Of a DNA stretch of 64,000 nt, positions 5,172 to 62,081 are shown piece by piece. The stretch's first letter is position 1, and each line of letters opens with the position of its first letter. The position numbers were made by a program, and so were the translations under genes. Origin of the DNA: Escherichia phage vB_Eco_BCPEco_001; sequence record PV295200.1; one strand, written 5' to 3'. Below the pieces are notes generated by a model. It made no database searches. It was given only the letters and a program-made list of their open reading frames with translations, and was not told the DNA's origin.

Positions 5172-6137
5172 TTATATTGCTCCTAATATTTTACTCTGCG
5201 AATTGACAATTCCTGTCATAGTATTAATGTTTGAAATGCTTCCTGCAGTTCCCCCTAATCTACTGAGTCGTGAAAGCGAATTAGATAGTCCAGTAACACC
5301 TCCACTATTTCCGAGAACGCTTTGAATACCATTTATAGCAGCAGATTCAAGCCATTCAAGCGCAGCTTGTCTATCAACTGCTCCAGCCTGCATGACTCTA
5401 TACGCAAAAGTAACATCAAATGTAGTTATTTGGTTATCTCCATCATATGATAATTCAGGAGCGCTCACTGACACTGGAATGCATCCGATGAACATTACCG
5501 CAGTATGAGGTAATCCATTGCGAGAATGAAGATTAACCTGAATATCTGCCTCGACATCTTGCGGCAAAGCACGCAATCCAGTTACTGGGTCTTGAACAGA
5601 GTTAACCCAGTCTTGCATTGCACGATAGTTACAAGCTTCTGAATCCATTCTAAATGAAATAACCAAAGGGTCTAATTCTCTTCCGGTTATACGAATATTA
5701 GGAGAATTATAGTTCCAGTCAGTTTCATAGGATAATCTATTCTCTGGCATTTTTACAGAATATATCATCAATCCAGATGAGTTATATGCCATGTTAAAGA
5801 AGTCAATTAAATATGTACCAACTGTAAATGAGCCCAATAAACTTTGAACTGTACGTTGACTCATGGCACCAATAAGATATTTACTAACCCCTGATTTTCT
5901 TATCAGTTTTTGTGTGCCAGCTGTAATTAGCGTGGTAATTCCCTGATTAATATCACCTTGAGTTAATCCTAGCCAATCTGAATTTAGGCCCAAGTTATTA
6001 TAAGAAAAGTTGCTAATTGAACTTATCAACGAAGAGCTTTTAGTTGATGGAGTTGTTGCAAAAACGCAGCTAAACATATTATTACGTTGGAAATCTGCGT
6101 TTATTGCTTGATTATTAAATTCCTCTAAAGAATACAT
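5172..6137 (-). CDS. 54: baseplate tail tube initiator gp54
   Basis: 321 aa, position upstream of 48-29 block as in T4; size matches gp54. Confidence 0.85.
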   Translation of the reverse strand: MYSLEEFNNQAINADFQRNNMFSCVFATTPSTKSSSLISSISNFSYNNLGLNSDWLGLTQGDINQGITTLITAGTQKLIRKSGVSKYLIGAMSQRTVQSLLGSFTVGTYLIDFFNMAYNSSGLMIYSVKMPENRLSYETDWNYNSPNIRITGRELDPLVISFRMDSEACNYRAMQDWVNSVQDPVTGLRALPQDVEADIQVNLHSRNGLPHTAVMFIGCIPVSVSAPELSYDGDNQITTFDVTFAYRVMQAGAVDRQAALEWLESAAINGIQSVLGNSGGVTGLSNSLSRLSRLGGTAGSISNINTMTGIVNSQSKILGAI

Positions 6138-7231
6138 TAAAAAGTCCCCGCATATAAAGAAGCACGGTTTAACGTGATAATTTCTCTCATAGTAATCTCG
6201 AGAGTAAATGTACTAGGGAGGTTTGGAGCAATAGCTAATCCGTTAAAGTTACCATTAGGTGTTTTATCAAATCTGATGCTTTGTATTTGGCATGGGCCAA
6301 ATATTTCCGTTTTTCCATCAAACTTAGATGTTGCACCAAAGTTTTTCACCATCCAAATTGTCGGGTTTGAAACTACTAGAACGTTAGTTAAACTCGATGT
6401 CATTTTCTCAAATAGTGTTTTATTTTTAGCTGCGTCTTCTGGAGATAAAGGTTCAATTAACGTAGAACGATACCAATCATCTAAATACCCCTTTATTTCA
6501 GCAGCATATTGAGATTTACCCGTTTCACCATAAGAAAAATAGTTAAAATATTGATAGATATTAATAATAGCCATTAAATCTTCTGTTGAACGTGGAGTCA
6601 AATCCCATGTAAACACTTTAGTTCTATTTTCAGCACCACCATACATACTTCTGGCTGTCGTATAAATCTGTTCATTATTATCAGCCATTATACCTTGTGT
6701 TATACTTTCCAGTGCCCCAAATACTGCGGTTGAAGCAATATTACTTAGCACACCAGTAGCAGTACCTCCGCCTCTGCTGATAAGACTTTCTTGAACATCA
6801 TTAAATCTATGTGATGATGTATCAACATCAGATTTAGATCTCGGTAAAAGAATGTTTGCGACAGGAGCTTTACTTATTGTTCCTGAATTATTGTTTGATA
6901 TTAATCCATTTGATAGTTTTGATACTGTACTACTAATAGTGTTTCTTGCTGTACTTAAAATACTCGAAGATGAAGAAGAGTAGTTAGATCTCATCGATCT
7001 AAGACTTCCAGAATCCCTAGATGACATATTGTATGCAGTAAATAATAATCCATTCTTATACAGATCTGTTACCTGGAAGTCCCCTGTAGTGTCATTACCA
7101 CTAGCACGCCCAGTTGGAAACTGGGCTGTGTATGTTTTAGTTCCTACTTCTGATTTAGTACTCTGTCCGGCTGAAATTTTCTCACCGGACTTTTTAATTA
7201 AATCAGCAGTTATTTCTTTAACAATTGCCAT
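6137..7231 (-). CDS. 48: baseplate tail tube cap gp48
   Basis: 364 aa, synteny 54-48-29, size matches T4 gp48. Confidence 0.85.
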   Translation of the reverse strand: MAIVKEITADLIKKSGEKISAGQSTKSEVGTKTYTAQFPTGRASGNDTTGDFQVTDLYKNGLLFTAYNMSSRDSGSLRSMRSNYSSSSSSILSTARNTISSTVSKLSNGLISNNNSGTISKAPVANILLPRSKSDVDTSSHRFNDVQESLISRGGGTATGVLSNIASTAVFGALESITQGIMADNNEQIYTTARSMYGGAENRTKVFTWDLTPRSTEDLMAIINIYQYFNYFSYGETGKSQYAAEIKGYLDDWYRSTLIEPLSPEDAAKNKTLFEKMTSSLTNVLVVSNPTIWMVKNFGATSKFDGKTEIFGPCQIQSIRFDKTPNGNFNGLAIAPNLPSTFTLEITMREIITLNRASLYAGTF

Positions 7232-7239
7232 ATTATTCC

Positions 7240-9012
7240 TTAATTAACTCCAGTCGCATCAAATACACCAGGAGCAGTCGTGCTCGTTACGGGTGTCATA
7301 TTATGAACGACAGTATTTTTCTTAATAACATTATTAGTATTATTGATCGAAGGAGATGCTTGTTGAACAGGAGCTTGCTGTGCTTTATTCTTTTCTATTA
7401 CCTGGACTTGTTTTGCTTCTGGTGATTTAGCAGAAGTTTCAGGTTTGGCATTAGGCTGATTTTTCTTGAGCTCTTGATAAGTAGCATCAATTTTAGAAAA
7501 TCTAGCAGCAAGTTCTTTTTTAACTGCTGGTGAATTATTTAAATCCGGGTCATCCATCCGTTTTTTAAGGTCTTCATAGGCAGATTCAACTGATTTAACT
7601 GTTGAGTCTTTACTCATATCAGCTGAATCGGCATATTTTTCAAAACGAATCATCGCGGCACGTGCTTCATTAGCCTTCATTAAAGCATTTTTTCTTTCTT
7701 CAGGTGAAAGCTGCTTTAATTTTTCTTCTTCTGCTGCACGTTCTTCGTCGGTAGTTAGTGCTTCTTTATTATCAACGCCACGAATCCAGTTAGATGCACG
7801 AGTTTTCCAATTAGCAATTTTATCTAATCCTTTTGCTATCGGACCAAGGTCTCCATTCATTCGTTTATCTTGATAATTTGCAACTTTTTCCTGGTCTTCT
7901 TTATTGAGAGATGCTCCAGTAGAATTTTGGAAATTTTCCAGCGCTCTTCCTTCTACTTCATCAGCGGTATCCTTCATACCAGGAATGACTCGAAGAATTG
8001 CAGCAGATAATTTAGCCATACCTAATTGAATAAGCTCTCCTAAATTAAAAAGAACACTTCCGAGTCCTTCTACGATAGCTGCTGTCAATCCACCCCAATC
8101 TCCCGCTTCCCAAAGTTGTTTAATTTTATCAATAGAATCAAAGATGCTCTGTAATAAAGGACCCCAAGTTCCGGTTTCGCTAGAGAATTTAGTAAAGTCA
8201 GTATTAAATAAATCCCAGGCTTTTGAAAATTTATCTGACCAATATTTAAAGTGAACCATCAGCAGATCTATTCCAACAACAACAGCCAATATCATTGCAG
8301 TCATTTTAGCGGCTTCAATAGCAGCACTGATGGTGTACTTAAATAACATGCTTGATATTTTATCACTAATTGAAATGGATTTCTTAAATCCAAAATCAAC
8401 AGTCTTTGTTAATTTATCTAAAGCTTGAGATAATTTTAAGTTAAATGCTTCTTTTTTCTGTTTTTCTTCTGGTGATTCTTGTTTGGGTTCAACTGGCTGA
8501 GGGGTAGGGAAAAAATCAGCGTCAGGATCATTATTAACTGCTTCAGGAGCTGGTAATAAAGGACCCACAGATTCAGCAGTATCATCCTCAACGACTTTAA
8601 CAGGAATAGCGCTTTCAACAGTGGCTAAACTAGTTCCAGTCTGTTGAATTCCAGCTGTCTGGATTTTTTGCTCTAATAAACTTGTTAATTTATCTAATTT
8701 GCTTCCGAGCGATTCACCGATTTCTTTATTAATATTATTGCCAATTTCGACAGTTTCAGCAATTAACTCAGAACCAGCAGTAGTATCACTCACTGCACTT
8801 TCTACATTGTCAATTGCTCCAATTATTTCATTCGATTTTTCTTCGACAGTTTGAGCTATTAATTCAGAAGCAGCTTGAGCATCATCCAATTTCGTAGATA
8901 TATCATTAAGTCCAGATAAAGTGTTAGAAGCGGATTTAGCCGCTTCCTGTGTTGGTTTATTATCTGAAATAACTTTTCTACGCATCGTTTGCATTTCTTG
9001 TGGCTTTTTCAT
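7240..9012 (-). CDS. 29: tail tube tape measure / baseplate hub protein gp29
   Basis: 590 aa, extended low-complexity helical protein, synteny and size match T4 gp29. Confidence 0.85.
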   Translation of the reverse strand: MKKPQEMQTMRRKVISDNKPTQEAAKSASNTLSGLNDISTKLDDAQAASELIAQTVEEKSNEIIGAIDNVESAVSDTTAGSELIAETVEIGNNINKEIGESLGSKLDKLTSLLEQKIQTAGIQQTGTSLATVESAIPVKVVEDDTAESVGPLLPAPEAVNNDPDADFFPTPQPVEPKQESPEEKQKKEAFNLKLSQALDKLTKTVDFGFKKSISISDKISSMLFKYTISAAIEAAKMTAMILAVVVGIDLLMVHFKYWSDKFSKAWDLFNTDFTKFSSETGTWGPLLQSIFDSIDKIKQLWEAGDWGGLTAAIVEGLGSVLFNLGELIQLGMAKLSAAILRVIPGMKDTADEVEGRALENFQNSTGASLNKEDQEKVANYQDKRMNGDLGPIAKGLDKIANWKTRASNWIRGVDNKEALTTDEERAAEEEKLKQLSPEERKNALMKANEARAAMIRFEKYADSADMSKDSTVKSVESAYEDLKKRMDDPDLNNSPAVKKELAARFSKIDATYQELKKNQPNAKPETSAKSPEAKQVQVIEKNKAQQAPVQQASPSINNTNNVIKKNTVVHNMTPVTSTTAPGVFDATGVN

Positions 9013-9542
9013 TCAAATAATCCAATAATATTGCCAATTCCAGTTATTGGACCATTAGGGCCAGGAATTGCTAAAGTTGTAAAAATATCATTTGCCCATT
9101 TTAAAACGAATGCTGGCATCTCAAGAAAATTAATTTCTTTAACTTCATCGTTGACCTTAAGCAAGCATTTAGATAACATATCGCTCACCGTTAAAAATTG
9201 TTCAAATTTTCCAGGAGGTCTAAAATAAAATGTATTTCCTTGGTATTGAAATTCTAATCTTTGGCATACATAAACATCATTAATGTCATAAGTATAGCCA
9301 TCTATTTCTTTACGAGATTTAATCTTTCCATTAAATTCCAATAAATGAATAGAAACGAAATCAACTTCTGCCGGTGACAAATTCGGACAAATAGAATCAA
9401 TAAGAAGTTTTAAATTTTCATCAGGGCCTTTAACATCTTTTAAAATGTTATAATGTTTAAGACCCATTTTAGGAATAGAAACTTCTTTATTGCTTATTGG
9501 AAGAACTACTTTCTTCAGTGGTAGTATCAGATTTAAATTCAT
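9009..9542 (-). CDS. 28: baseplate hub distal subunit gp28
   Basis: 177 aa, synteny between 29 and 27, size matches T4 gp28. Confidence 0.8.
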
Positions 9543-10662
9543 TTTTAACCTTAACTGGGTCTATTGTTTCCAGTTTCGTTGCATTAGTGAACATATATAG
9601 ATGAGTTACTGAATTATTATTGGATAATTCATGGATAACTTCATCAACGTAAAATTCTGTTTTAAATTGGTTTTTACTATCATTAAAAATAATTTTAACA
9701 CCAGGAGTCAAGTTAAAATTACCGACAGTAGAACATTTAGCATAGCCGTCATATTGTGCCATAGTTTGAAGACGAATAGCTTCTTCATATCCATTCCTAT
9801 AAGTCATTTCAGAATAAGCACCTGACCTTGACACTACAATAGAGTTTTCACCCTTTCCTGTAGTAATCATTGGCAATGAAGAATCTAAAAATGAATGCGC
9901 ATAGATAGTAGCGTTTTTCATTGGGTCACGTTTGTGAGGATTCGATTTAGTCAACCAAACAAAATCATATGCTAATGGATATTTTAATTCTTGGACAAAT
10001 TGACCTATTAAAGATGGCTCACCGACAATCATTGGATATGGTTCTTGATTTATCATCATATCATAGTCCATCATGTTAACTCCCATGATGTCTTGCCATA
10101 CAAATACAAATTTGTCGCTTCCTACAGCTAGAGCAACTTCTCTTACATAGGACAAATAGTTTTCAAATGTGCTAGTCCATGGAATATCAGGAACATAAGC
10201 ATTTATAGCATTTATCGCTGGAGTTAATAATGTACGGTCTTGATAAATGACGCCAAGCATTTCTTTTATAGATTCACCTGCATCAGGGAAAAATGGTCTA
10301 CCAAATTTAAGATTTTCTATAGAATGAATAGTTCCCAATTCAATAGCAATGATGTTATCGCCTTTTGAATCTACTGACACGGAAAAATGCTTGCATCCAT
10401 AAATTCGTGTTTTAACATTATTAATATCGTTTGCATTAGCTACAGAAATTTGAATTATTTCATTTCCATCCATTTTTGTGTGGATATTTTTAGAATCATA
10501 AAACTGCAGCATTCCTTCATTTCGACCATAAAGAGAGTCACGCATAGTTAATGTGGTAATAGTAGCAGCTAATTCAACAAATCTATTATTACTCCAAGCG
10601 TCATAACTCTCAAATAATTTAACGCTGAGATTTGGATATCCAGGACGTTGTAACATACTCAT
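9487..10662 (-). CDS. 27: baseplate hub protein gp27
   Basis: 391 aa, size and synteny match T4 gp27. Confidence 0.85.
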
Positions 10663-11411
10663 TGATGTTTATCCTTCTCAATCAGTTTTAATACGAATCC
10701 GCGCTCGGCAGGAATCATTTTCATTATTGAATTTAAGCTATAATTACTTTTTACAAGCGTGTGATTAATTTGATAAAAAGTAAATATCTCATCTGGATTA
10801 ACTAATAGCTTAAACACATCTACTATATCAGTGTATTTTTTAATGTACTTATCACAACACGACATGTGCAATGTTAAATTAATAGGATTCATTGCATCGA
10901 GAATTTTTTCTAATGTTTCTATCTCGATGGCGTCAACTAGTTCTATTTGACTGGACTCGCTAATTTCCTTCCAATCATACCATATTTCATCTACTTGAAC
11001 AGAATGAATATTTTCAGTAATCATCTTTGCTTTATTTTCATAAAACTCAGAAGGAAACTTTAATTTAATTTTAACATTAGCTACATCAAAAACAGGTTCC
11101 TTTAGTTCTTTTTGATATATTTCAAATGGAACTGTCTTTTCTTTTTTACATTTTGGACATACAAATGTGACCGGTACTTTAGTTTTACCTATTGAACCTA
11201 CAAATACCTGCAAAAATATAAATGGTTGCCAAGTCTTCGGATAGTCTCCAAAATAATCATCAATTAAATCAGTAATTATTTCTTTTTGTTCTTGTGGTGA
11301 CCGATGTTCTATATCGTTTCGAACTAACAAAAAATCTCGATAATCTTCTACCGTAAATGGTTTAAAACGATGAACACCATCTGGTAATTTACAACGAATA
11401 ATGTTTGCCAT
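10659..11411 (-). CDS. 51: baseplate hub assembly catalyst gp51
   Basis: 250 aa, Cys pairs (CPKCKK, CCDKY), synteny 27-51 divergent from 26. Confidence 0.8.
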
Positions 11412-11428
11412 AGATGCTCCTTTTATTC

Positions 11429-11436
11429 TATTTATA
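11429..11436 (-). promoter_or_regulatory. late promoter TATAAATA (gene 51)
   Basis: Exact box on minus strand upstream of gp51 start; part of palindromic TATTTATAAATA. Confidence 0.6.
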
Positions 11437-11440
11437 AATA
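11433..11440 (+). promoter_or_regulatory. late promoter TATAAATA (gene 26)
   Basis: Exact box 21 bp upstream of gp26 ATG. Confidence 0.65.
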
Positions 11441-11461
11441 TGATAAATAAAGGAGCTAAAT

Positions 11462-12088
11462 ATGTATGAATACAAATTTGATGTGAGAGTTGGTTCTAAA
11501 ATAATCAATTGTCGCGCATTCACGCTTAAAGAATATCTAGAACTTATTACTGCCAAAAATAATGGTTCAGTAGAAGTAGTTGTTAAAAAGCTAATCAAAG
11601 ACTGCACAAATGCAAAAGATTTAAACCGCCAAGAATCAGAACTATTGTTGATTCATTTATGGGCACATTCTCTCGGTGAAGTTAATCACGAAAACTCCTG
11701 GAAGTGCACCTGTGGAACTGAAATACCAACCCATATAAATCTATTACATACGCAAATAGATGCACCAGAAGACCTCTGGTATACACTGGGTGACATTAAA
11801 ATTAAGTTCCATTACCCCAAAATTTTTGATGATAAAAATATAGCCCACATGATAGTATCATGTATAGAAACGATTCATGCTAACGGGGAAAGCATTCCAA
11901 TTGAAGACTTGAATGAAAAAGAGTTGGAAGATTTATATTCTATCATCACAGAGTCAGATATTGTAGCTATAAAAGATATGCTTTTAAAGCCTACTGTTTA
12001 TTTGGCTGTTCCAATTAAGTGTCCAGAGTGTGGAAAAACCCATGCTCACGTAATAAGAGGACTCAAAGAATTCTTTGAGCTATTGTAA
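11462..12088 (+). CDS. 26: baseplate hub protein gp26
   Basis: 208 aa, size and position match T4 gp26; late promoter upstream. Confidence 0.8.
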
Positions 12089-13697: not shown

Positions 13698-15209
13698 TTA
13701 TAAATTAACTGTTTTCATTACGTAATTAAATTTTTCATCTGCGTAGCGCTGAATACGATCAATGCCGTGTTTTAAAAGATAGTTCAAATGAACATATTTC
13801 TTTTTTGTATTAGCAGATTTTGGCTTAACACCGCAATCATCTATGAGGTCCCAGACTGTTGCTATTGTCTTAGAACCATGCTTACGTAATACACGACCGA
13901 TTGTTTGCAATACAATGATTTTTGATTTAACACCGTGCGCTAAAACAACGTGATGCAGATTTTTAACTGAAATACCAGTAGAAAATACACCATAACTAGC
14001 TACTATAATTATTCCTTTACCATTTTCAGCTAAGGTTTTCATTATATTGCGGGTTTCGGTATCAACTTCCCCTGATACGTAATAAACTTTATCGTATTCA
14101 TTTTTAATTAAATCGAAAATAGCTTTACCGTGCGATACATGTTTAAACATGACAAAAGCGTTTTCATCTTTTTGCGCAAGCTTAATAGCTAATTTAGCGA
14201 TCCATTTATTTCTTTTACTAAGCCCAGTAATAATTTTTATTTCTTCTTGGTAAGTTTTTCCCTTTAATTTAGTAGTGAACTCATCGGGATAGCGAAGAAA
14301 AATACTATTAATTTTTAGCTCAGTTACTTGTCCATCTTCCATTAATTTAGAAGTCGTTACTGGCTTAAATATTTCACCAAACATTCCAACATACTGCATG
14401 ATATTGGCTTTGCCATCACGTAATGAACCTGATAGACCAAATTTAAACATACAGTTATTTAATCCTGATATGATAGATGAAATACTTTTTCCTGTAGCAA
14501 GATGGCATTCATCATTCATCATCATTCCAAACTGTGAGAACCATTCTTTTGGTTGTTTAACTACAGTTTGCCATGTACCAACGACGACTGGTGCATCATT
14601 TTTATATTTATCATCTTTTGATGCTCCGCCACCGATTTTCTTTATCATTGCATGACTGAATAAACGATAATCAACAAAGTCATCAGCCATCTGAGTTGTC
14701 AGAGCAGTTGTTGGAACAATGATAAGAATTTTACCTTCATAATTTTCCAAATAATATCGCGCAAGCAAAGCTTGAATTAAAGATTTACCCGCAGATGTTG
14801 GAAGATTAAGAATTCTACGACGATTAACTAATCCTTCGAACACTGCATCTTTTTGATACCAGTGTGGTTCAATTCTTTTATTTCCTGAATAGATTTCTAA
14901 TTTAGAAAGCCATTCATCAAAATCTTTTCTTGATAATTCTTCTTTTTCGTTAATTTGCGGGTCAATCCAGGCTTTATAGCCAAAATTATCACAGAACTTT
15001 TTAATTTGCCCGACTAAGCCGAATGGAAGAAGACGATTATAATCTAAAAGACGGATTCGTCCATCCCAGTTGCCATATCTGAAGCGAGGATTAAACCTAT
15101 ATCCATCAGCTTCAAAGCTAAAGAAATCACGGAGTTCATGAAATGTACTTTCTTCACAATCAATTCTCACGTGACTAAAATCATAAAAATGTACTTTAAT
15201 GTCAGTCAT
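13698..15209 (-). CDS. uvsW: UvsW DNA/RNA helicase
   Basis: 503 aa, SF2 helicase motifs (PTSAGKS Walker A, DECH box), late promoter TATAAATA upstream. Confidence 0.9.
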   Translation of the reverse strand: MTDIKVHFYDFSHVRIDCEESTFHELRDFFSFEADGYRFNPRFRYGNWDGRIRLLDYNRLLPFGLVGQIKKFCDNFGYKAWIDPQINEKEELSRKDFDEWLSKLEIYSGNKRIEPHWYQKDAVFEGLVNRRRILNLPTSAGKSLIQALLARYYLENYEGKILIIVPTTALTTQMADDFVDYRLFSHAMIKKIGGGASKDDKYKNDAPVVVGTWQTVVKQPKEWFSQFGMMMNDECHLATGKSISSIISGLNNCMFKFGLSGSLRDGKANIMQYVGMFGEIFKPVTTSKLMEDGQVTELKINSIFLRYPDEFTTKLKGKTYQEEIKIITGLSKRNKWIAKLAIKLAQKDENAFVMFKHVSHGKAIFDLIKNEYDKVYYVSGEVDTETRNIMKTLAENGKGIIIVASYGVFSTGISVKNLHHVVLAHGVKSKIIVLQTIGRVLRKHGSKTIATVWDLIDDCGVKPKSANTKKKYVHLNYLLKHGIDRIQRYADEKFNYVMKTVNL

Positions 15210-15238
15210 GTCTAAATACCATGTAATAAATATATCTA

Positions 15239-15246
15239 TATTTATA
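15239..15246 (-). promoter_or_regulatory. late promoter TATAAATA (uvsW)
   Basis: Exact box on minus strand 30 bp upstream of uvsW ATG. Confidence 0.7.
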
Positions 15247-15259
15247 CTGAGGAAATATT

Positions 15260-15940
15260 ATGATAGATAAAGATTATATTGCAGAGCTGAAGGCTCTTGA
15301 TGATAACAAAGAAGCTAAAGCTAAATTAGCTGAATATGCTGAACAGTTTGGTATAAAGGTCAAAAAGAATAAATCTTTTGATAATATCGTTGTTGATATT
15401 GAAGAAGCCCTCCAGAAGCTCGCTAGTGAACCTATGCCGGAGACTGATGGGTTATCTATTAAAGACTTAATTGATGCTGCTGATGCTGCAGAGGGGTTAA
15501 AATATGACGATGAAGAAGTCAATCCAGAAGCAGCACTTCTGATTGATTCTCCGGTTAAATCTGACATTAAAATTGAAGTAGTAAAAACGGATAAAATTCC
15601 TGAAAATACCTCAGTTTTGATTGAAGATACTCCTTTTGTTGAAGAAAAATTCGAACAGGCTGTAGCTGAGATTATTGAATCTGAAAAGCCGTCTGTATTT
15701 ACTCTTCCGGAAAACTTTAGCCCAAATCTTCAGCTGATTGGAAAAAATCCAGGATTCTGTACTGTTCCTTGGTGGATTTATCAATGGATTGCTGAAACTC
15801 CGGATTGGAAATCTCACCCAACTAGTTTTGAACATGCGTCAGCACACCAAACTTTATTTAGCTTAATTTATTACATTAACCGTGACGGATCAGTTTTAAT
15901 TCGTGAAACACGCAACTCTTCTTTCGTAACATTAAAATAA
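15260..15940 (+). CDS. inh: Inh, inhibitor of prohead protease gp21
   Basis: 226 aa, size and position next to hoc match T4 inh. Confidence 0.8.
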   Translation: MIDKDYIAELKALDDNKEAKAKLAEYAEQFGIKVKKNKSFDNIVVDIEEALQKLASEPMPETDGLSIKDLIDAADAAEGLKYDDEEVNPEAALLIDSPVKSDIKIEVVKTDKIPENTSVLIEDTPFVEEKFEQAVAEIIESEKPSVFTLPENFSPNLQLIGKNPGFCTVPWWIYQWIAETPDWKSHPTSFEHASAHQTLFSLIYYINRDGSVLIRETRNSSFVTLK

Positions 15941-17949: not shown

Positions 17950-18954
17950 ATGTTTAAAAAGTATAGCAGTCTTGAAAATCATTACAACTCTAAATTTATT
18001 GAAAAACTTTATAGCTTGGGATTGACTGGTGGGGAGTGGGTAGCTCGTGAAAAGATTCACGGCACAAATTTCTCATTGATTATTGAGCGTGATAAAGTAA
18101 CTTGCGCTAAACGTACTGGACCGATTCTTCCTGCTGAAGATTTCTTTGGGTATGAAATTATTCTAAAGAATTACGAAGATTCTATTAAAGCAGTACAAGA
18201 TATTATGGAAACCTCAGCGGTTGTATCTTATCAAGTCTTTGGCGAATTCGCTGGACCTGGCATTCAGAAGAATGTCGATTATGGCGATAAAGATTTTTAT
18301 GTATTTGACATTATTGTCACTACAGAAAGTGGTGATGTGACTTATGTCGATGATTATATGATGGAATCATTTTGTAATACATTTAAATTTAAAATGGCTC
18401 CACTTTTAGGTCGCGGTAAATTTGAAGAGCTTATTAAATTGCCAAATGATTTAGATTCTGTCGTCCAAGATTATAATTTTACAGTAGACCATGCCGGATT
18501 AGTTGATGCAAATAAATGCATTTGGAATGCCGAAGCAAAAGGCGAAGTATTTACCGCTGAAGGATATGTATTGAAACCTTGTTATCCTTCTTGGCTTCAT
18601 AATGGAAATCGTGTAGCCATCAAATGCAAGAATTCCAAATTTAGTGAAAAGAAAAAGTCTGATAAGCCTATTAAAGCTAAAGTTGAACTATCAGAAGCTG
18701 ATAACAAATTGGTGGGAATTTTAGCTTGCTACGTTACACTGAACCGAGTAAATAACGTTATTTCTAAAATTGGTGAAATTGGTCCGAAGGATTTTGGAAA
18801 GGTGATGGGACTAACTGTTCAAGATATTTTGGAAGAAACTTCTCGTGAAGGTATTACTCTAACTCAAGCAGATAATCCTTCTTTGGTTAAAAAGGAATTA
18901 GTTAAAATGGTACAAGATGTACTTCGTCCGGCTTGGATTGAATTGGTAAGTTAA
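17950..18954 (+). CDS. rnlB: RNA ligase 2
   Basis: 334 aa, nucleotidyltransferase motif I KIHGTN, size identical to T4 Rnl2. Confidence 0.9.
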
Positions 18955-18985: not shown

Positions 18986-20267
18986 ATTCATCAACGATAA
19001 TTTTTGGTAGCTTAACACCTAATAAAACAGACAAATCTGAACGACCCGCCATTTTATCCATGTCTCCACCATCAATTACTCTTGCTTCTTTTTCATCTTT
19101 TGCTACGGTGTAAGGATTTGCAGATAAAGCATATCTAACTAATAAACCGATAGATGGCTGCAAACTTTCTGGGTCAACTACAACTTTAAATGCACCTACA
19201 TGTTCAGGGTCATCTAAGTCAAGACCTTCTGTATACGGAGCATAGAAAATTGACCCAACAATTTCTTTTTCACCGATATTTTCTACTACGCCAACGATTA
19301 CATAATCTAATGGGCTGTTAGTATCGCAATAAAGCGGTAAACCATTAGCTAAGAACCCGTAGGCATTTTGTGAAAGATACTTATCATCTTCTGGTTTATG
19401 TTTTAACCAACCAGATGCAGCAAGAATCGCAGCGGCACGAGCTGAAGCAACACAGAACGTTGCCGTATAAGTTGATTCTTTTTGGATATGCGAAACCATT
19501 TCACATACCATTCGGTATAATGAACGACCAGCTTCAGGTGCAGATGCATAACTCAAATCAATGAATCCAGTATCAGTAATTCCTGTAACTTTATAACGTT
19601 TTGATACTGTAATCAAAGACTGCAGAATATCTTTATTGATTTCATCTGCCATTTCAGTTGCAAGCAAATCTTCCAAGAAATTAGGAGCATCGAATCCATT
19701 TGCTTCTAAATCTTGCGCTAATTCAACTGTGATACCAGTTTTAAGTTTACGAGATTTAACTGCGGTTTGCCATTTATTAATCTGGAATCTAGCATCCGCA
19801 ATTTCACTATCAGAGCTTTCAAATTTGCTTGTTGACGCTGCGTCAGAAAATAGACGAACCTTTAAAAGAACAATTGCAATCTGAAGAGCTAATTCTAAAT
19901 CGCTTTCTTCAATATCAGCAAATGGTGTATCTTCTAATACTTTATAAACGATATTATTATATTTGAATAAATCGCCCTTATTGAGAGTTAATTTAGACTC
20001 TTCTGTTAATTCTGTGATTTGTTCTCGGTCTACATATCCAGCTTCGCCAGCGTAAGTAGCACCAGTTTTAAATGTAAATTCGTTGTCTGGGTTAAGGTAT
20101 TTGATACCATAAAAAGCAGCAACAGGTTGATTAGTTCTTTGCGTTGCTACAATGTCAGAATATATTAATTTAGTGGTAGCGCGAGTCAAAGCAACGAGAT
20201 TTGGGCGACCGATTGAGTTGCTATTCGTTGTGGTTGATTCGCGCAGAAGTTCGTTGATTTTAGCCAT
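18984..20267 (-). CDS. 24: head vertex protein gp24
   Basis: 427 aa, gp23-like fold paralog, late promoter upstream, synteny next to 23. Confidence 0.9.
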   Translation of the reverse strand: MAKINELLRESTTTNSNSIGRPNLVALTRATTKLIYSDIVATQRTNQPVAAFYGIKYLNPDNEFTFKTGATYAGEAGYVDREQITELTEESKLTLNKGDLFKYNNIVYKVLEDTPFADIEESDLELALQIAIVLLKVRLFSDAASTSKFESSDSEIADARFQINKWQTAVKSRKLKTGITVELAQDLEANGFDAPNFLEDLLATEMADEINKDILQSLITVSKRYKVTGITDTGFIDLSYASAPEAGRSLYRMVCEMVSHIQKESTYTATFCVASARAAAILAASGWLKHKPEDDKYLSQNAYGFLANGLPLYCDTNSPLDYVIVGVVENIGEKEIVGSIFYAPYTEGLDLDDPEHVGAFKVVVDPESLQPSIGLLVRYALSANPYTVAKDEKEARVIDGGDMDKMAGRSDLSVLLGVKLPKIIVDE

Positions 20268-20294
20268 TGTATTTTCCTTGTTGAAATATAATAC

Positions 20295-20302
20295 TATTTA
20301 TA
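20295..20302 (-). promoter_or_regulatory. late promoter TATAAATA (gene 24)
   Basis: Exact box on minus strand 28 bp upstream of gp24 ATG. Confidence 0.75.
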
Positions 20303-20307
20303 AAGTT

Positions 20308-20338
20308 ATTTACAAGACCAAAGTAATATGATATTATA
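20308..20338 (+). promoter_or_regulatory. early-type promoter (segD)
   Basis: ATTTAC -35-like, 18-bp spacer, ATATTA -10-like, upstream of segD ATG 20367. Confidence 0.4.
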
Positions 20339-26456: not shown

Positions 26457-26948
26457 TTATTCCCAATAATCGAGAGCGAGAGTTACTTCAAAGGTTTGGA
26501 TTTCATTGTTTGAATCCCAATCTAATTGAAGTTCACCCACGTTAGTAGGCCACAGACCTTTAATTTCAATTTCTTTTGTTACTGTTTTAGCGTCACGAGC
26601 ATATTGACGAACGATAGCGCTCTTTTTATACTCTGCAGGTTTTCCACCAGTAATTTCGTTTCCTTGACCAGCAGCAATGCTTTGCCAATCAACAAACTTC
26701 TGGCGAGCATCATGAGCTTCATCGTTCATTACTGTAACAGTCCAGTCATCGAATGTACGATCGCCTGCTACGTTAATTTTACGGTTCATAAATCCGACTG
26801 GAATTTTTTCTACAATACCAGCTGGTAAAGCAGTGGCTTTACATTGGAATGTAAAATTTTGTCCAAGATAAGAAATTTCTACTTGGAATAAGTTAGGTCG
26901 AGCAAAATCACCAGATTCAAACGCTCGTGTTACATCATCTACAAACAT
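26457..26948 (-). CDS. 19: tail tube protein gp19
   Basis: 163 aa, size identical to T4 gp19, late promoter upstream. Confidence 0.9.
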   Translation of the reverse strand: MFVDDVTRAFESGDFARPNLFQVEISYLGQNFTFQCKATALPAGIVEKIPVGFMNRKINVAGDRTFDDWTVTVMNDEAHDARQKFVDWQSIAAGQGNEITGGKPAEYKKSAIVRQYARDAKTVTKEIEIKGLWPTNVGELQLDWDSNNEIQTFEVTLALDYWE

Positions 26949-26962
26949 ATTAGCCTCTGTAG

Positions 26963-26970
26963 TATTTATA
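26963..26970 (-). promoter_or_regulatory. late promoter TATAAATA (gene 19)
   Basis: Exact box on minus strand 15 bp upstream of gp19 ATG. Confidence 0.7.
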
Positions 26971-27064
26971 TCCCTATGTTTAACCTAGGGCATATAGAAT
27001 TAAAGAATTAAGGATATAGTGTATTTATATGGCCTGCCGAAACAGGCCTTTAGAATGCACCATA

Positions 27065-50404: not shown

Positions 50405-50978
50405 AAGATTTCTCCATTATACGTATAAGGTCGTTCATAAATGAATTGATGTCTGATTTTGCTATTATTTTTATTTGACGAAGTTTTTCATTTTCAAGAA
50501 CAGCAGCTTCATACGTATCGACCGCAGCAAGTGCTCCTTCATATTGAGGATATTTTCTAGCTTTATCGCCTTTGTCATACCAAACATATGGATTATCATC
50601 GTATGATATTAAATTATAAAATTTTTCACCGTTCTCATTCACATGATATACTATTTGGTCTCCACCTACGTTTTTGTATTTTTGTATAGATGCTTGATAA
50701 GCAGCTTCTTGCGAAGTAATCCATCCATAATACGGATCATAATTATCATTACACATCAATAAAACCCAATACAACTGCGGATTTCCATATATAGCATTTG
50801 CTAATTCTTCCGGGCGCGGTGAACCTTTAATATAATAAGTACGTAAGCGGTATCCCGCAAGAGCACGTTTGAAATAGTCTTTATAGTTTCTAAAAATATC
50901 TGTCATAGGAATAGTCGGCGCGTTTTTATTCACCGTTTTGGCCGCATATTCAATCGGATCAAAAAATGTAAAGAGCAT
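50388..50978 (-). CDS. 53: baseplate wedge protein gp53
   Basis: 196 aa, size identical to T4 gp53, late promoter upstream. Confidence 0.9.
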   Translation of the reverse strand: MLFTFFDPIEYAAKTVNKNAPTIPMTDIFRNYKDYFKRALAGYRLRTYYIKGSPRPEELANAIYGNPQLYWVLLMCNDNYDPYYGWITSQEAAYQASIQKYKNVGGDQIVYHVNENGEKFYNLISYDDNPYVWYDKGDKARKYPQYEGALAAVDTYEAAVLENEKLRQIKIIAKSDINSFMNDLIRIMEKSYGNDK

Positions 50979-50991
50979 GGGCCCTCCTGTT

Positions 50992-50999
50992 TATAAATA
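50992..50999 (+). promoter_or_regulatory. late promoter TATAAATA (gene 4)
   Basis: Exact box 27 bp upstream of gp4 ATG. Confidence 0.7.
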
Positions 51000-51006
51000 T
51001 ATTATC

Positions 51007-51014
51007 TATTTATA
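51007..51014 (-). promoter_or_regulatory. late promoter TATAAATA (gene 53)
   Basis: Exact box on minus strand 29 bp upstream of gp53 ATG; divergent from the gene 4 promoter. Confidence 0.7.
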
Positions 51015-51025
51015 AGGAGAATCCA

Positions 51026-51478
51026 ATGGCATATTCTGGAAAATGGGTTCCTAAAAATATATCAAAATATAGAGGTGACCCTAAAAAAATTACGTATAGA
51101 TCAAATTGGGAAAAATTCTTTTTTGAATGGTTAGATAAAAATCCAGAAATTATTGCATGGGGTAGTGAAACAGCAGTAATTCCTTATTTTTGTAATGCAG
51201 AAGGGAAAAAACGTAGATACTTCATGGATATTTGGATGAAAGATTCTTCTGGACAAGAATTTTTTATTGAAATAAAACCTAAAAAAGAAACACAACCACC
51301 AGTTAAACCAGCACATCTAACAACTGCAGCGAAGAAAAGATTTATGAATGAAATTTATACATATTCCGTTAATACTGACAAATGGAAAGCAGCGCAATCT
51401 TTAGCTGAAAAGCGTGGAATAAAATTTAGAATTTTAACAGAAGATGGATTACGAGCTCTTGGCTTTAAGGGGGCATAA
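51026..51478 (+). CDS. 4: head completion protein gp4
   Basis: 150 aa, size and divergent position from 53 match T4 gp4. Confidence 0.85.

Positions 51479-61550: not shown

Positions 61551-62081
<531 letters not shown>

Follow-up and report, generated by a model that had tools for sequence, protein, structure and literature searches.

The window analyzed here is the whole 64,000-nucleotide stretch of Escherichia phage vB_Eco_BCPEco_001 (PV295200.1). It carries two baseplate genes, 51 and 26, which diverge from a common gap of 50 bp. The open reading frames, their Pfam matches, and the annotations of relatives agree on the identity of both genes, as the first-pass annotation of this DNA had named them. 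In order, the gap holds a 12-nt leader with a Shine-Dalgarno region, a 12-bp double late-promoter box, and a 16-nt leader with a second Shine-Dalgarno region. The features of the locus are as follows.

10659–11411, minus strand: gene 51, baseplate hub assembly catalyst, 250 aa (ORF; Pfam PF12322, T4_baseplate)
11411–11458, both strands: 48-bp imperfect palindrome with 24-nt arms that are 71% complementary, centered between 11434 and 11435
11416–11423, minus strand: Shine-Dalgarno region of gene 51, AAAGGAGC
11429–11440, both strands: 12-bp palindrome TATTTATAAATA, two overlapping late-promoter boxes (768–779 of the T4 record M77695.1)
11429–11436, minus strand: late-promoter box TATAAATA of P51 (pattern search; annotated in M77695.1, MZ726795.1, and LR215724.1)
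11433–11440, plus strand: late-promoter box TATAAATA of P26, for the 26-25 unit (pattern search; annotated in M77695.1, MZ726795.1, and LR215724.1)
11442–11449, plus strand: variant box GATAAATA, directly after P26 (781–788 of M77695.1)
11449–11456, plus strand: Shine-Dalgarno region of gene 26, AAAGGAGC (ribosome_binding_site in M77695.1)
11462–12088, plus strand: gene 26, baseplate hub subunit/chaperone, 208 aa (ORF; Pfam PF12322, T4_baseplate)

PF12322 covers gp51 and gp26 over their full length (E 8e-55 and 9e-63, respectively). A direct comparison of the two proteins gives 19% pairwise identity (E 0.002), and judged by sequence gp26 is a distant paralogue of gp51. The two paralogues are placed head to head about the palindrome, which marks their axis of symmetry, and their Shine-Dalgarno regions (GCTCCTTT and AAAGGAGC) are perfect inverted repeats of each other. 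P51 heads a run of baseplate genes on the minus strand (5172–11411), the content of which we take from T4 to be 27-28-29-48-54. In Slopekvirus KP15 the order is 54-51-26-25, in tandem on a single strand and with no divergent junction; as 51 and 26 are head to head elsewhere, an inversion or an inverted duplication would therefore separate the lineages.

On the plus strand, positions 11429–11440 read TATTTATAAATA, a perfect 12-bp palindrome. The first-pass annotation had resolved it into a minus-strand box and a plus-strand box overlapping by 4 nt; the sequence and our pattern search agree with this, the P51 and P26 boxes having 4 bp in common. According to a first-order Markov model, TATTTATAAATA is expected about 0.05 times in the 64-kb window, where it occurs once, and about 3e-5 times in a single 50-bp gap. 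The box TATAAATA itself occurs 25 times in the window, compared to 9.5 ± 3.1 in dinucleotide shuffles, none of which reached 25 in 100 trials. Based on a crude ORF map with 94% coding sequence, 16 of the 25 boxes are non-coding, although non-coding DNA makes up only about 5.6% of the window. These non-coding boxes have a co-oriented ATG 14–30 nt downstream, with the exception of one tandem box, for which the distance is 74 nt. A chance origin of the palindrome is ruled out by the Markov expectation, the shuffles, and the gene-proximal placement of the boxes.

Two groups of tandem boxes, each on one strand and before a single gene, were observed elsewhere in the window. Two plus-strand TATAAATA boxes lie 5 bp apart at 61553–61573, before an ORF at 61587, and two minus-strand TATAAATA boxes lie 51 bp apart at 26963–27029, before an ORF ending at 26948. 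We also noted the divergent gap between gene 24 and the next plus-strand gene (20267–20328), the latter being presumably segD by T4 gene order. Here a minus-strand TATAAATA box (20295–20302) is embedded in TATTTATAAAGT, which nearly repeats the 51/26 palindrome but has a degenerate plus half (TATAAAGT); this is the fused element in a one-sided form.

A T4 late promoter consists of TATAAATA only, at −13 to −6, and about 50 such sites, 32 of them perfect, are listed for T4 (PMC1524935, PMC2988020). An AT-rich segment between the late box and the start site has also been described (PMC2988020). At the 51/26 junction, the exact box is present on both strands as the sole conserved element, and each copy is followed by a nearby late gene in the same orientation, both genes matching Pfam T4_baseplate. 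The P51 box ends 18 nt before the gp51 ATG and the P26 box 22 nt before the gp26 ATG. Taking the box as −13 to −6, the predicted +1 is an A at 11423 for P51 (minus strand) and an A at 11446 for P26 (plus strand), so that initiation would fall about 6 nt past each box and the two starts, predicted from box positions only, would be 23 bp apart. The segments from −5 to +2, GAATAAA for P51 and TGATAAA for P26, are both AT-rich.

Within the 50-bp gap we found no further late box upstream of either gene except the variant GATAAATA, which is labelled as a TATA_box or as a late promoter with 1 mismatch in M77695.1 and MZ726795.1. We considered GATAAATA as a second promoter of gene 26. Its predicted +1 (11455) falls within the gene 26 Shine-Dalgarno region, and comparison of the 51/26 gaps shows no conservation of this box outside Tequatrovirus; on these grounds it is probably a minor promoter or has no function.

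Over the 121 bp at 11380–11500, the window shows 100% identity with T4 (MT984581.1), T2, T6, RB14, RB32, and many others. In the coordinates of MT984581.1, the gap between genes 51 and 26 is at about 116.43–116.48 kb. The comparison with the T4 51/26 intergenic sequence proposed by the first-pass annotation thus ends in identity. A 1.2-kb query matches about 500 Tequatrovirus genomes at 95–99% identity, including T4, T2, RB3, and RB32, and these matches label the genes as 51 (hub assembly catalyst), 26 (hub subunit), and 25. With the window about 98% identical to T4 over this region, the phage is another Tequatrovirus isolate, and this level of identity implies that the genes for gp55, gp33, and gp45 are present in its genome. 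In M77695.1, which covers T4 genes 51/26/25/uvsY, TATA_box features are annotated for gene 51 at 768–774 and for gene 26 at 772–779. The later genome records MZ726795.1 and LR215724.1 carry both overlapping late promoters on opposite strands. Scarlato and colleagues, from the Gruidl/Mosig group, reportedly described in 1989 (Virology 171:475) overlapping promoters from which the base plate gene cluster is transcribed divergently. A reference entry in PMC2988022 names the paper that matches M77695.1 (Gruidl, Chen, Gargano, Storlazzi, Cascino, Mosig 1991, Virology 184:359).

By position between the divergent genes 51 and 26 and by sequence, the site is orthologous to the T4 P51/P26 pair. It shares with that pair the sequence, the genes, the overlapping boxes, and the extra GATAAATA, without any difference at the site itself. 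From these comparisons, we identify it as the classic T4 P51/P26 pair, which is already in the public record and is textbook-level rather than new. The claim that divergent late boxes are fused between 51 and 26 holds on the identity with T4, the three annotated records, and the conservation of both boxes across genera.

To compare the junction more widely, 51/26 gaps were collected from eleven other Straboviridae genera found by gp51 tblastn. The exact TATTTATAAATA is present in Mosigvirus (AV114), Karamvirus (CC31), Jiaodavirus (KpV477), Dhakavirus (Bp7), Winklervirus (LC53), Hadassahvirus (Acinetobacter phage PhT2), and Bragavirus (Proteus phage PM2). With Tequatrovirus included, the exact 12-mer is found in 8 of the 11 sampled genera with a divergent junction, in gaps of 45–65 bp. 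It is the sole invariant block of the intergenic alignment, in which mean column identity is 48%. Krischvirus (JK32, Sf20/RB49) has TATTTATAAAATA in the gap, where a one-base insertion (an extra A) keeps the gene 51 box and breaks the gene 26 box; ACTAAATA follows. Since Krischvirus is viable despite its destroyed plus-strand box, the fused arrangement is not obligatory. By these alignments, both 51/26 boxes are under purifying selection, without their fusion being a requirement.

Tulanevirus (avDM4) and Biquartavirus (44RR), both genera of Aeromonas phages, have TATTTAAATA in the gap. This is a 10-bp palindrome made of two TTTAAATA boxes overlapping by 6, and it is what deletion of the central TA from TATTTATAAATA would give. 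In the TTTAAATA boxes position −12 is a T, whereas T4 gp55 takes up an A in its pocket at that position; this counts against the explanation that we prefer below. Elsewhere in 44RR, late genes are preceded by TATAAATA, AATAAATA, and CTTAAATA, the last of these being found upstream of inh. TAAATA appears to be the constant core of the 44RR late boxes. The T at −12 and the use of CTTAAATA suggest a relaxed or altered recognition of −12/−13 by the 44RR gp55.

A second divergent pair of late boxes, between genes 53 and 4, and a third at uvsW are arranged differently. Their positions in the window are as follows.

50992–50999, plus strand: late box TATAAATA of gene 4 (ATG at 51026), predicted +1 at 51005
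51007–51014, minus strand: late box TATAAATA of gene 53 (ATG at 50978), predicted +1 at 51001
15225–15232, plus strand: late box AATAAATA of the ORF at 15260 (left half of the third pair, 15225–15246)
15239–15246, minus strand: late box TATAAATA of uvsW (ATG at 15209; right half of the third pair)

Genes 53 and 4 were identified by a match of the minus-strand ORF to Pfam Phage_gp53 and by the annotation of relatives. The coordinates and the 7-bp spacer given for this pair by the first-pass annotation stand; the plus box serves gene 4 and the minus box gene 53, so that its order of genes is swapped if read respectively. Unlike the back-to-back boxes of 51/26, the 53/4 boxes are crossed, the plus box of gene 4 being to the left of the minus box of gene 53. 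The predicted starts are 4 bp apart, each box occupies +3 to +10 of the other promoter, and the predicted bubbles overlap by 7 bp. The crossed layout recurs with a 7-bp spacer in Mosigvirus, Karamvirus, and Dhakavirus, with an 8-bp spacer in Krischvirus, with a 10-bp spacer in Jiaodavirus, and with a 15-bp spacer in Hadassahvirus. The T4 record for this region (X14845.1) carries no promoter annotation. As a side observation, the gp4 head-completion protein (51026–51478) has a Pfam hit to PF08722 (E 2.8e-21), the N-terminal domain of TnsA-like endonucleases.

The uvsW pair has a 6-bp spacer and lies in a 50-bp gap between uvsW (13698–15209, minus strand) and an ORF at 15260–15940 (plus strand). 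Aeromonas phage 44RR has a crossed layout of the same type between uvsW and inh (around 18224–18277). Like 51/26, the crossed pairs at 53/4 and uvsW have two late boxes on opposite strands in a gap of 47–50 bp and are conserved across genera; their boxes lie 21–30 nt from their ATGs. In contrast to 51/26, the crossed boxes face each other across a spacer of 6–15 bp, with predicted starts about 4 bp apart and no shared bases. Each crossed box also lies in the initially transcribed region of the other, and the predicted bubble overlap is 7 bp as opposed to 2 bp at 51/26.

Structural work on T4 late transcription indicates what the fused arrangement may imply. By cryo-EM, late-promoter DNA is unwound from −12 to +2, and gp55 reads the non-template strand by pocketing A−12, A−9, and A−8, the −12 pocket being deep (PMC7892883). 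Upstream of the bubble, gp33 makes contact with the duplex, and gp45 forms a ring around the DNA at the upstream end (PMC7892883). Footprint and structure data show that the gp45 clamp extends the upstream footprint by 13 bp (PMC7892883, PMC2988020), and clamp orientation sets which transcription polarity is activated (PMC2988020). A T4 dRNA-seq preprint gives 150 T4 start sites (GEO GSE255091).

We consider it very probable that the 51/26 element is a pair of gp55-dependent promoters placed back to back, a maximal compaction of the 50-bp control region that has been frozen in evolution. P51 would fire leftward into gene 51 and then the baseplate genes behind it, and P26 would fire rightward into 26-25. 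The TATA that opens the box is its own reverse complement, so that two boxes in divergent orientation can have these four bases in common at no cost, giving TATTTATAAATA, and the arrangement would be frozen because any central change damages both promoters. The predicted bubbles cover 11434–11447 for P26 and 11422–11435 for P51, with 2 bp in common, and the upstream duplex of each polymerase would be the DNA melted and transcribed by the other. Since the central 2 bp would be required by both bubbles at once and each enzyme would cover the DNA that the other has to melt, we infer that no more than one promoter is engaged at any moment. On steric grounds taken from single-promoter structures, the P51 and P26 open complexes look mutually exclusive. 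It is plausible, by the same inference, that gp55 holoenzymes compete or alternate at this site, as the first reading of the sequence had put it. As clamp orientation decides polarity, oppositely oriented clamps should serve P51 and P26.

It is unlikely, in our estimate, that the overlap was selected as a device in which forced alternation of gp55 holoenzymes, or of opposed gp45 clamps, fixes the ratio of the 51 and 26 operons. The exact 12-mer is kept in 8 genera while its flanks diverge, but such conservation needs no ratio function, since the 12-mer contains no base outside the two essential boxes and an insertion or deletion at its center harms both. The near-perfect symmetry of the promoters (same box, A at +1, AT-rich −5 to +2, inverted-repeat Shine-Dalgarno) and the switch of activated direction with clamp polarity (PMC2988020) would suit this device. 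However, the boxes are uncoupled in Krischvirus, and genes 51 and 26 are in tandem in KP15. The 53/4 and uvsW/next-gene junctions are crossed with spacers of 6–15 bp, so that no one coupling geometry is preferred. The paralogy of gp51 and gp26 and their place in one assembly pathway also speak for a ratio function, yet gp51 is a catalyst and gp26 a hub subunit/chaperone, without an obvious reason for equal dosage. Compaction through the self-complementary TATA, or a frozen state, fits these observations equally well, and the arrangement is not a proven dosage-balancing device. A toggle, in which the fork direction or the nicked strand picks the 51 operon or the 26-25 operon on each DNA copy, is similarly unlikely. 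It would presuppose mutually exclusive open complexes and a gp45 that activates only the promoter with a nick in the non-transcribed strand. If it were true, the ratio of the hub-assembly paralogues would be coupled to replication geometry, and conservation of the 12-mer would reflect this coupling instead of two independent boxes.

Other readings deny the element its double promoter role. One box alone may work, the other being a by-product of a near-palindromic AT-rich consensus: a reverse box needs only 4 extra bases (TATT) beyond the self-complementary TATA, and the caution that not every one of the 50 listed T4 late promoters is proven active in vivo (PMC2988020) speaks for this reading and counts against our own. 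We nevertheless judge it highly improbable, as none of the four bases that each box has for itself varies in 8 genera, in contrast to the freely varying bases just outside. Each gene also heads a late transcription unit, and the 50-bp gap has no alternative consensus box. Moreover, both predicted leaders have a Shine-Dalgarno at normal spacing, and the T4 record as submitted by its authors carries both boxes. There is similarly very little chance that the palindrome is mainly the site of a dimeric protein (e.g., T4 DsbA), a cruciform, or the hinge of an inverted duplication, with a secondary promoter role. The 48-bp imperfect palindrome of the intergenic region and the head-to-head paralogues gp51/gp26 are in line with such a function, and DsbA has been reported on AT-rich sites overlapping two late promoters (PMC2988020). 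However, DsbA binds weakly, in the micromolar range, and dsbA is not an essential gene (PMC2988020); we found no link of DsbA to the 51/26 site. Neutral symmetry would be lost at 19% identity between the paralogues, and the symmetric parts correspond exactly to the box and the Shine-Dalgarno. An inverted-duplication relic was rejected as the source of the symmetry, as at this protein identity only functional elements could stay symmetric. In addition, TATAAATA recurs at 16 other positions near genes that lack a palindromic context, and symmetric mutations that spare both consensus boxes are impossible, which argues that the boxes are the function.

Two back-to-back gp55 promoters, the reading that we retain, have a parallel in bacteria. 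Warman, Forrest, Wade, and Grainger describe overlapping symmetric −10 elements that commonly give divergent starts, with start-site spacings that are mostly 18 bp but also 29, 23, 12, 10, and 7 bp (bioRxiv 10.1101/2020.01.31.928960). As in their promoters, partly self-complementary −10-type elements coincide on opposite strands at 51/26, and the predicted 51/26 spacing equals their 23-bp class. Bidirectional promoters of this kind have overlapping elements, with starts 7–25 bp apart, and are recognized by sigma70 (TATAAT). The 51/26 boxes do overlap, and the positions of the boxes alone predict a start spacing of 23 bp; the 8-mer is that of gp55, stands before late genes, and is not a sigma70 element. 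In the bacterial promoters sigma70 recognizes the hexamer TATAAT. At 51/26 phage gp55 would take its place, with a box of 8 bp and without a −35 element, and the sliding clamp gp45 would activate transcription. For the reciprocal stimulation through R451 of sigma70 in the bacterial promoters, no equivalent is known at 51/26. By analogy, the site may be said to resemble a bidirectional promoter in its working, without being a member of the class in the sigma70 sense.

The finding has little importance beyond confirmation, as the window adds no sequence difference at the classic P51/P26 pair. The comparison across the family does single out the exact palindrome as the one invariant block of the 51/26 control region in at least eight genera of Straboviridae. 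It also shows that T4-type phages have two divergent late-promoter geometries, fused (51/26) and crossed (53/4, uvsW), both of which should enforce mutually exclusive occupancy. Divergent late pairs are in this respect the phage-sigma counterpart of the symmetric bidirectional promoters of bacteria.
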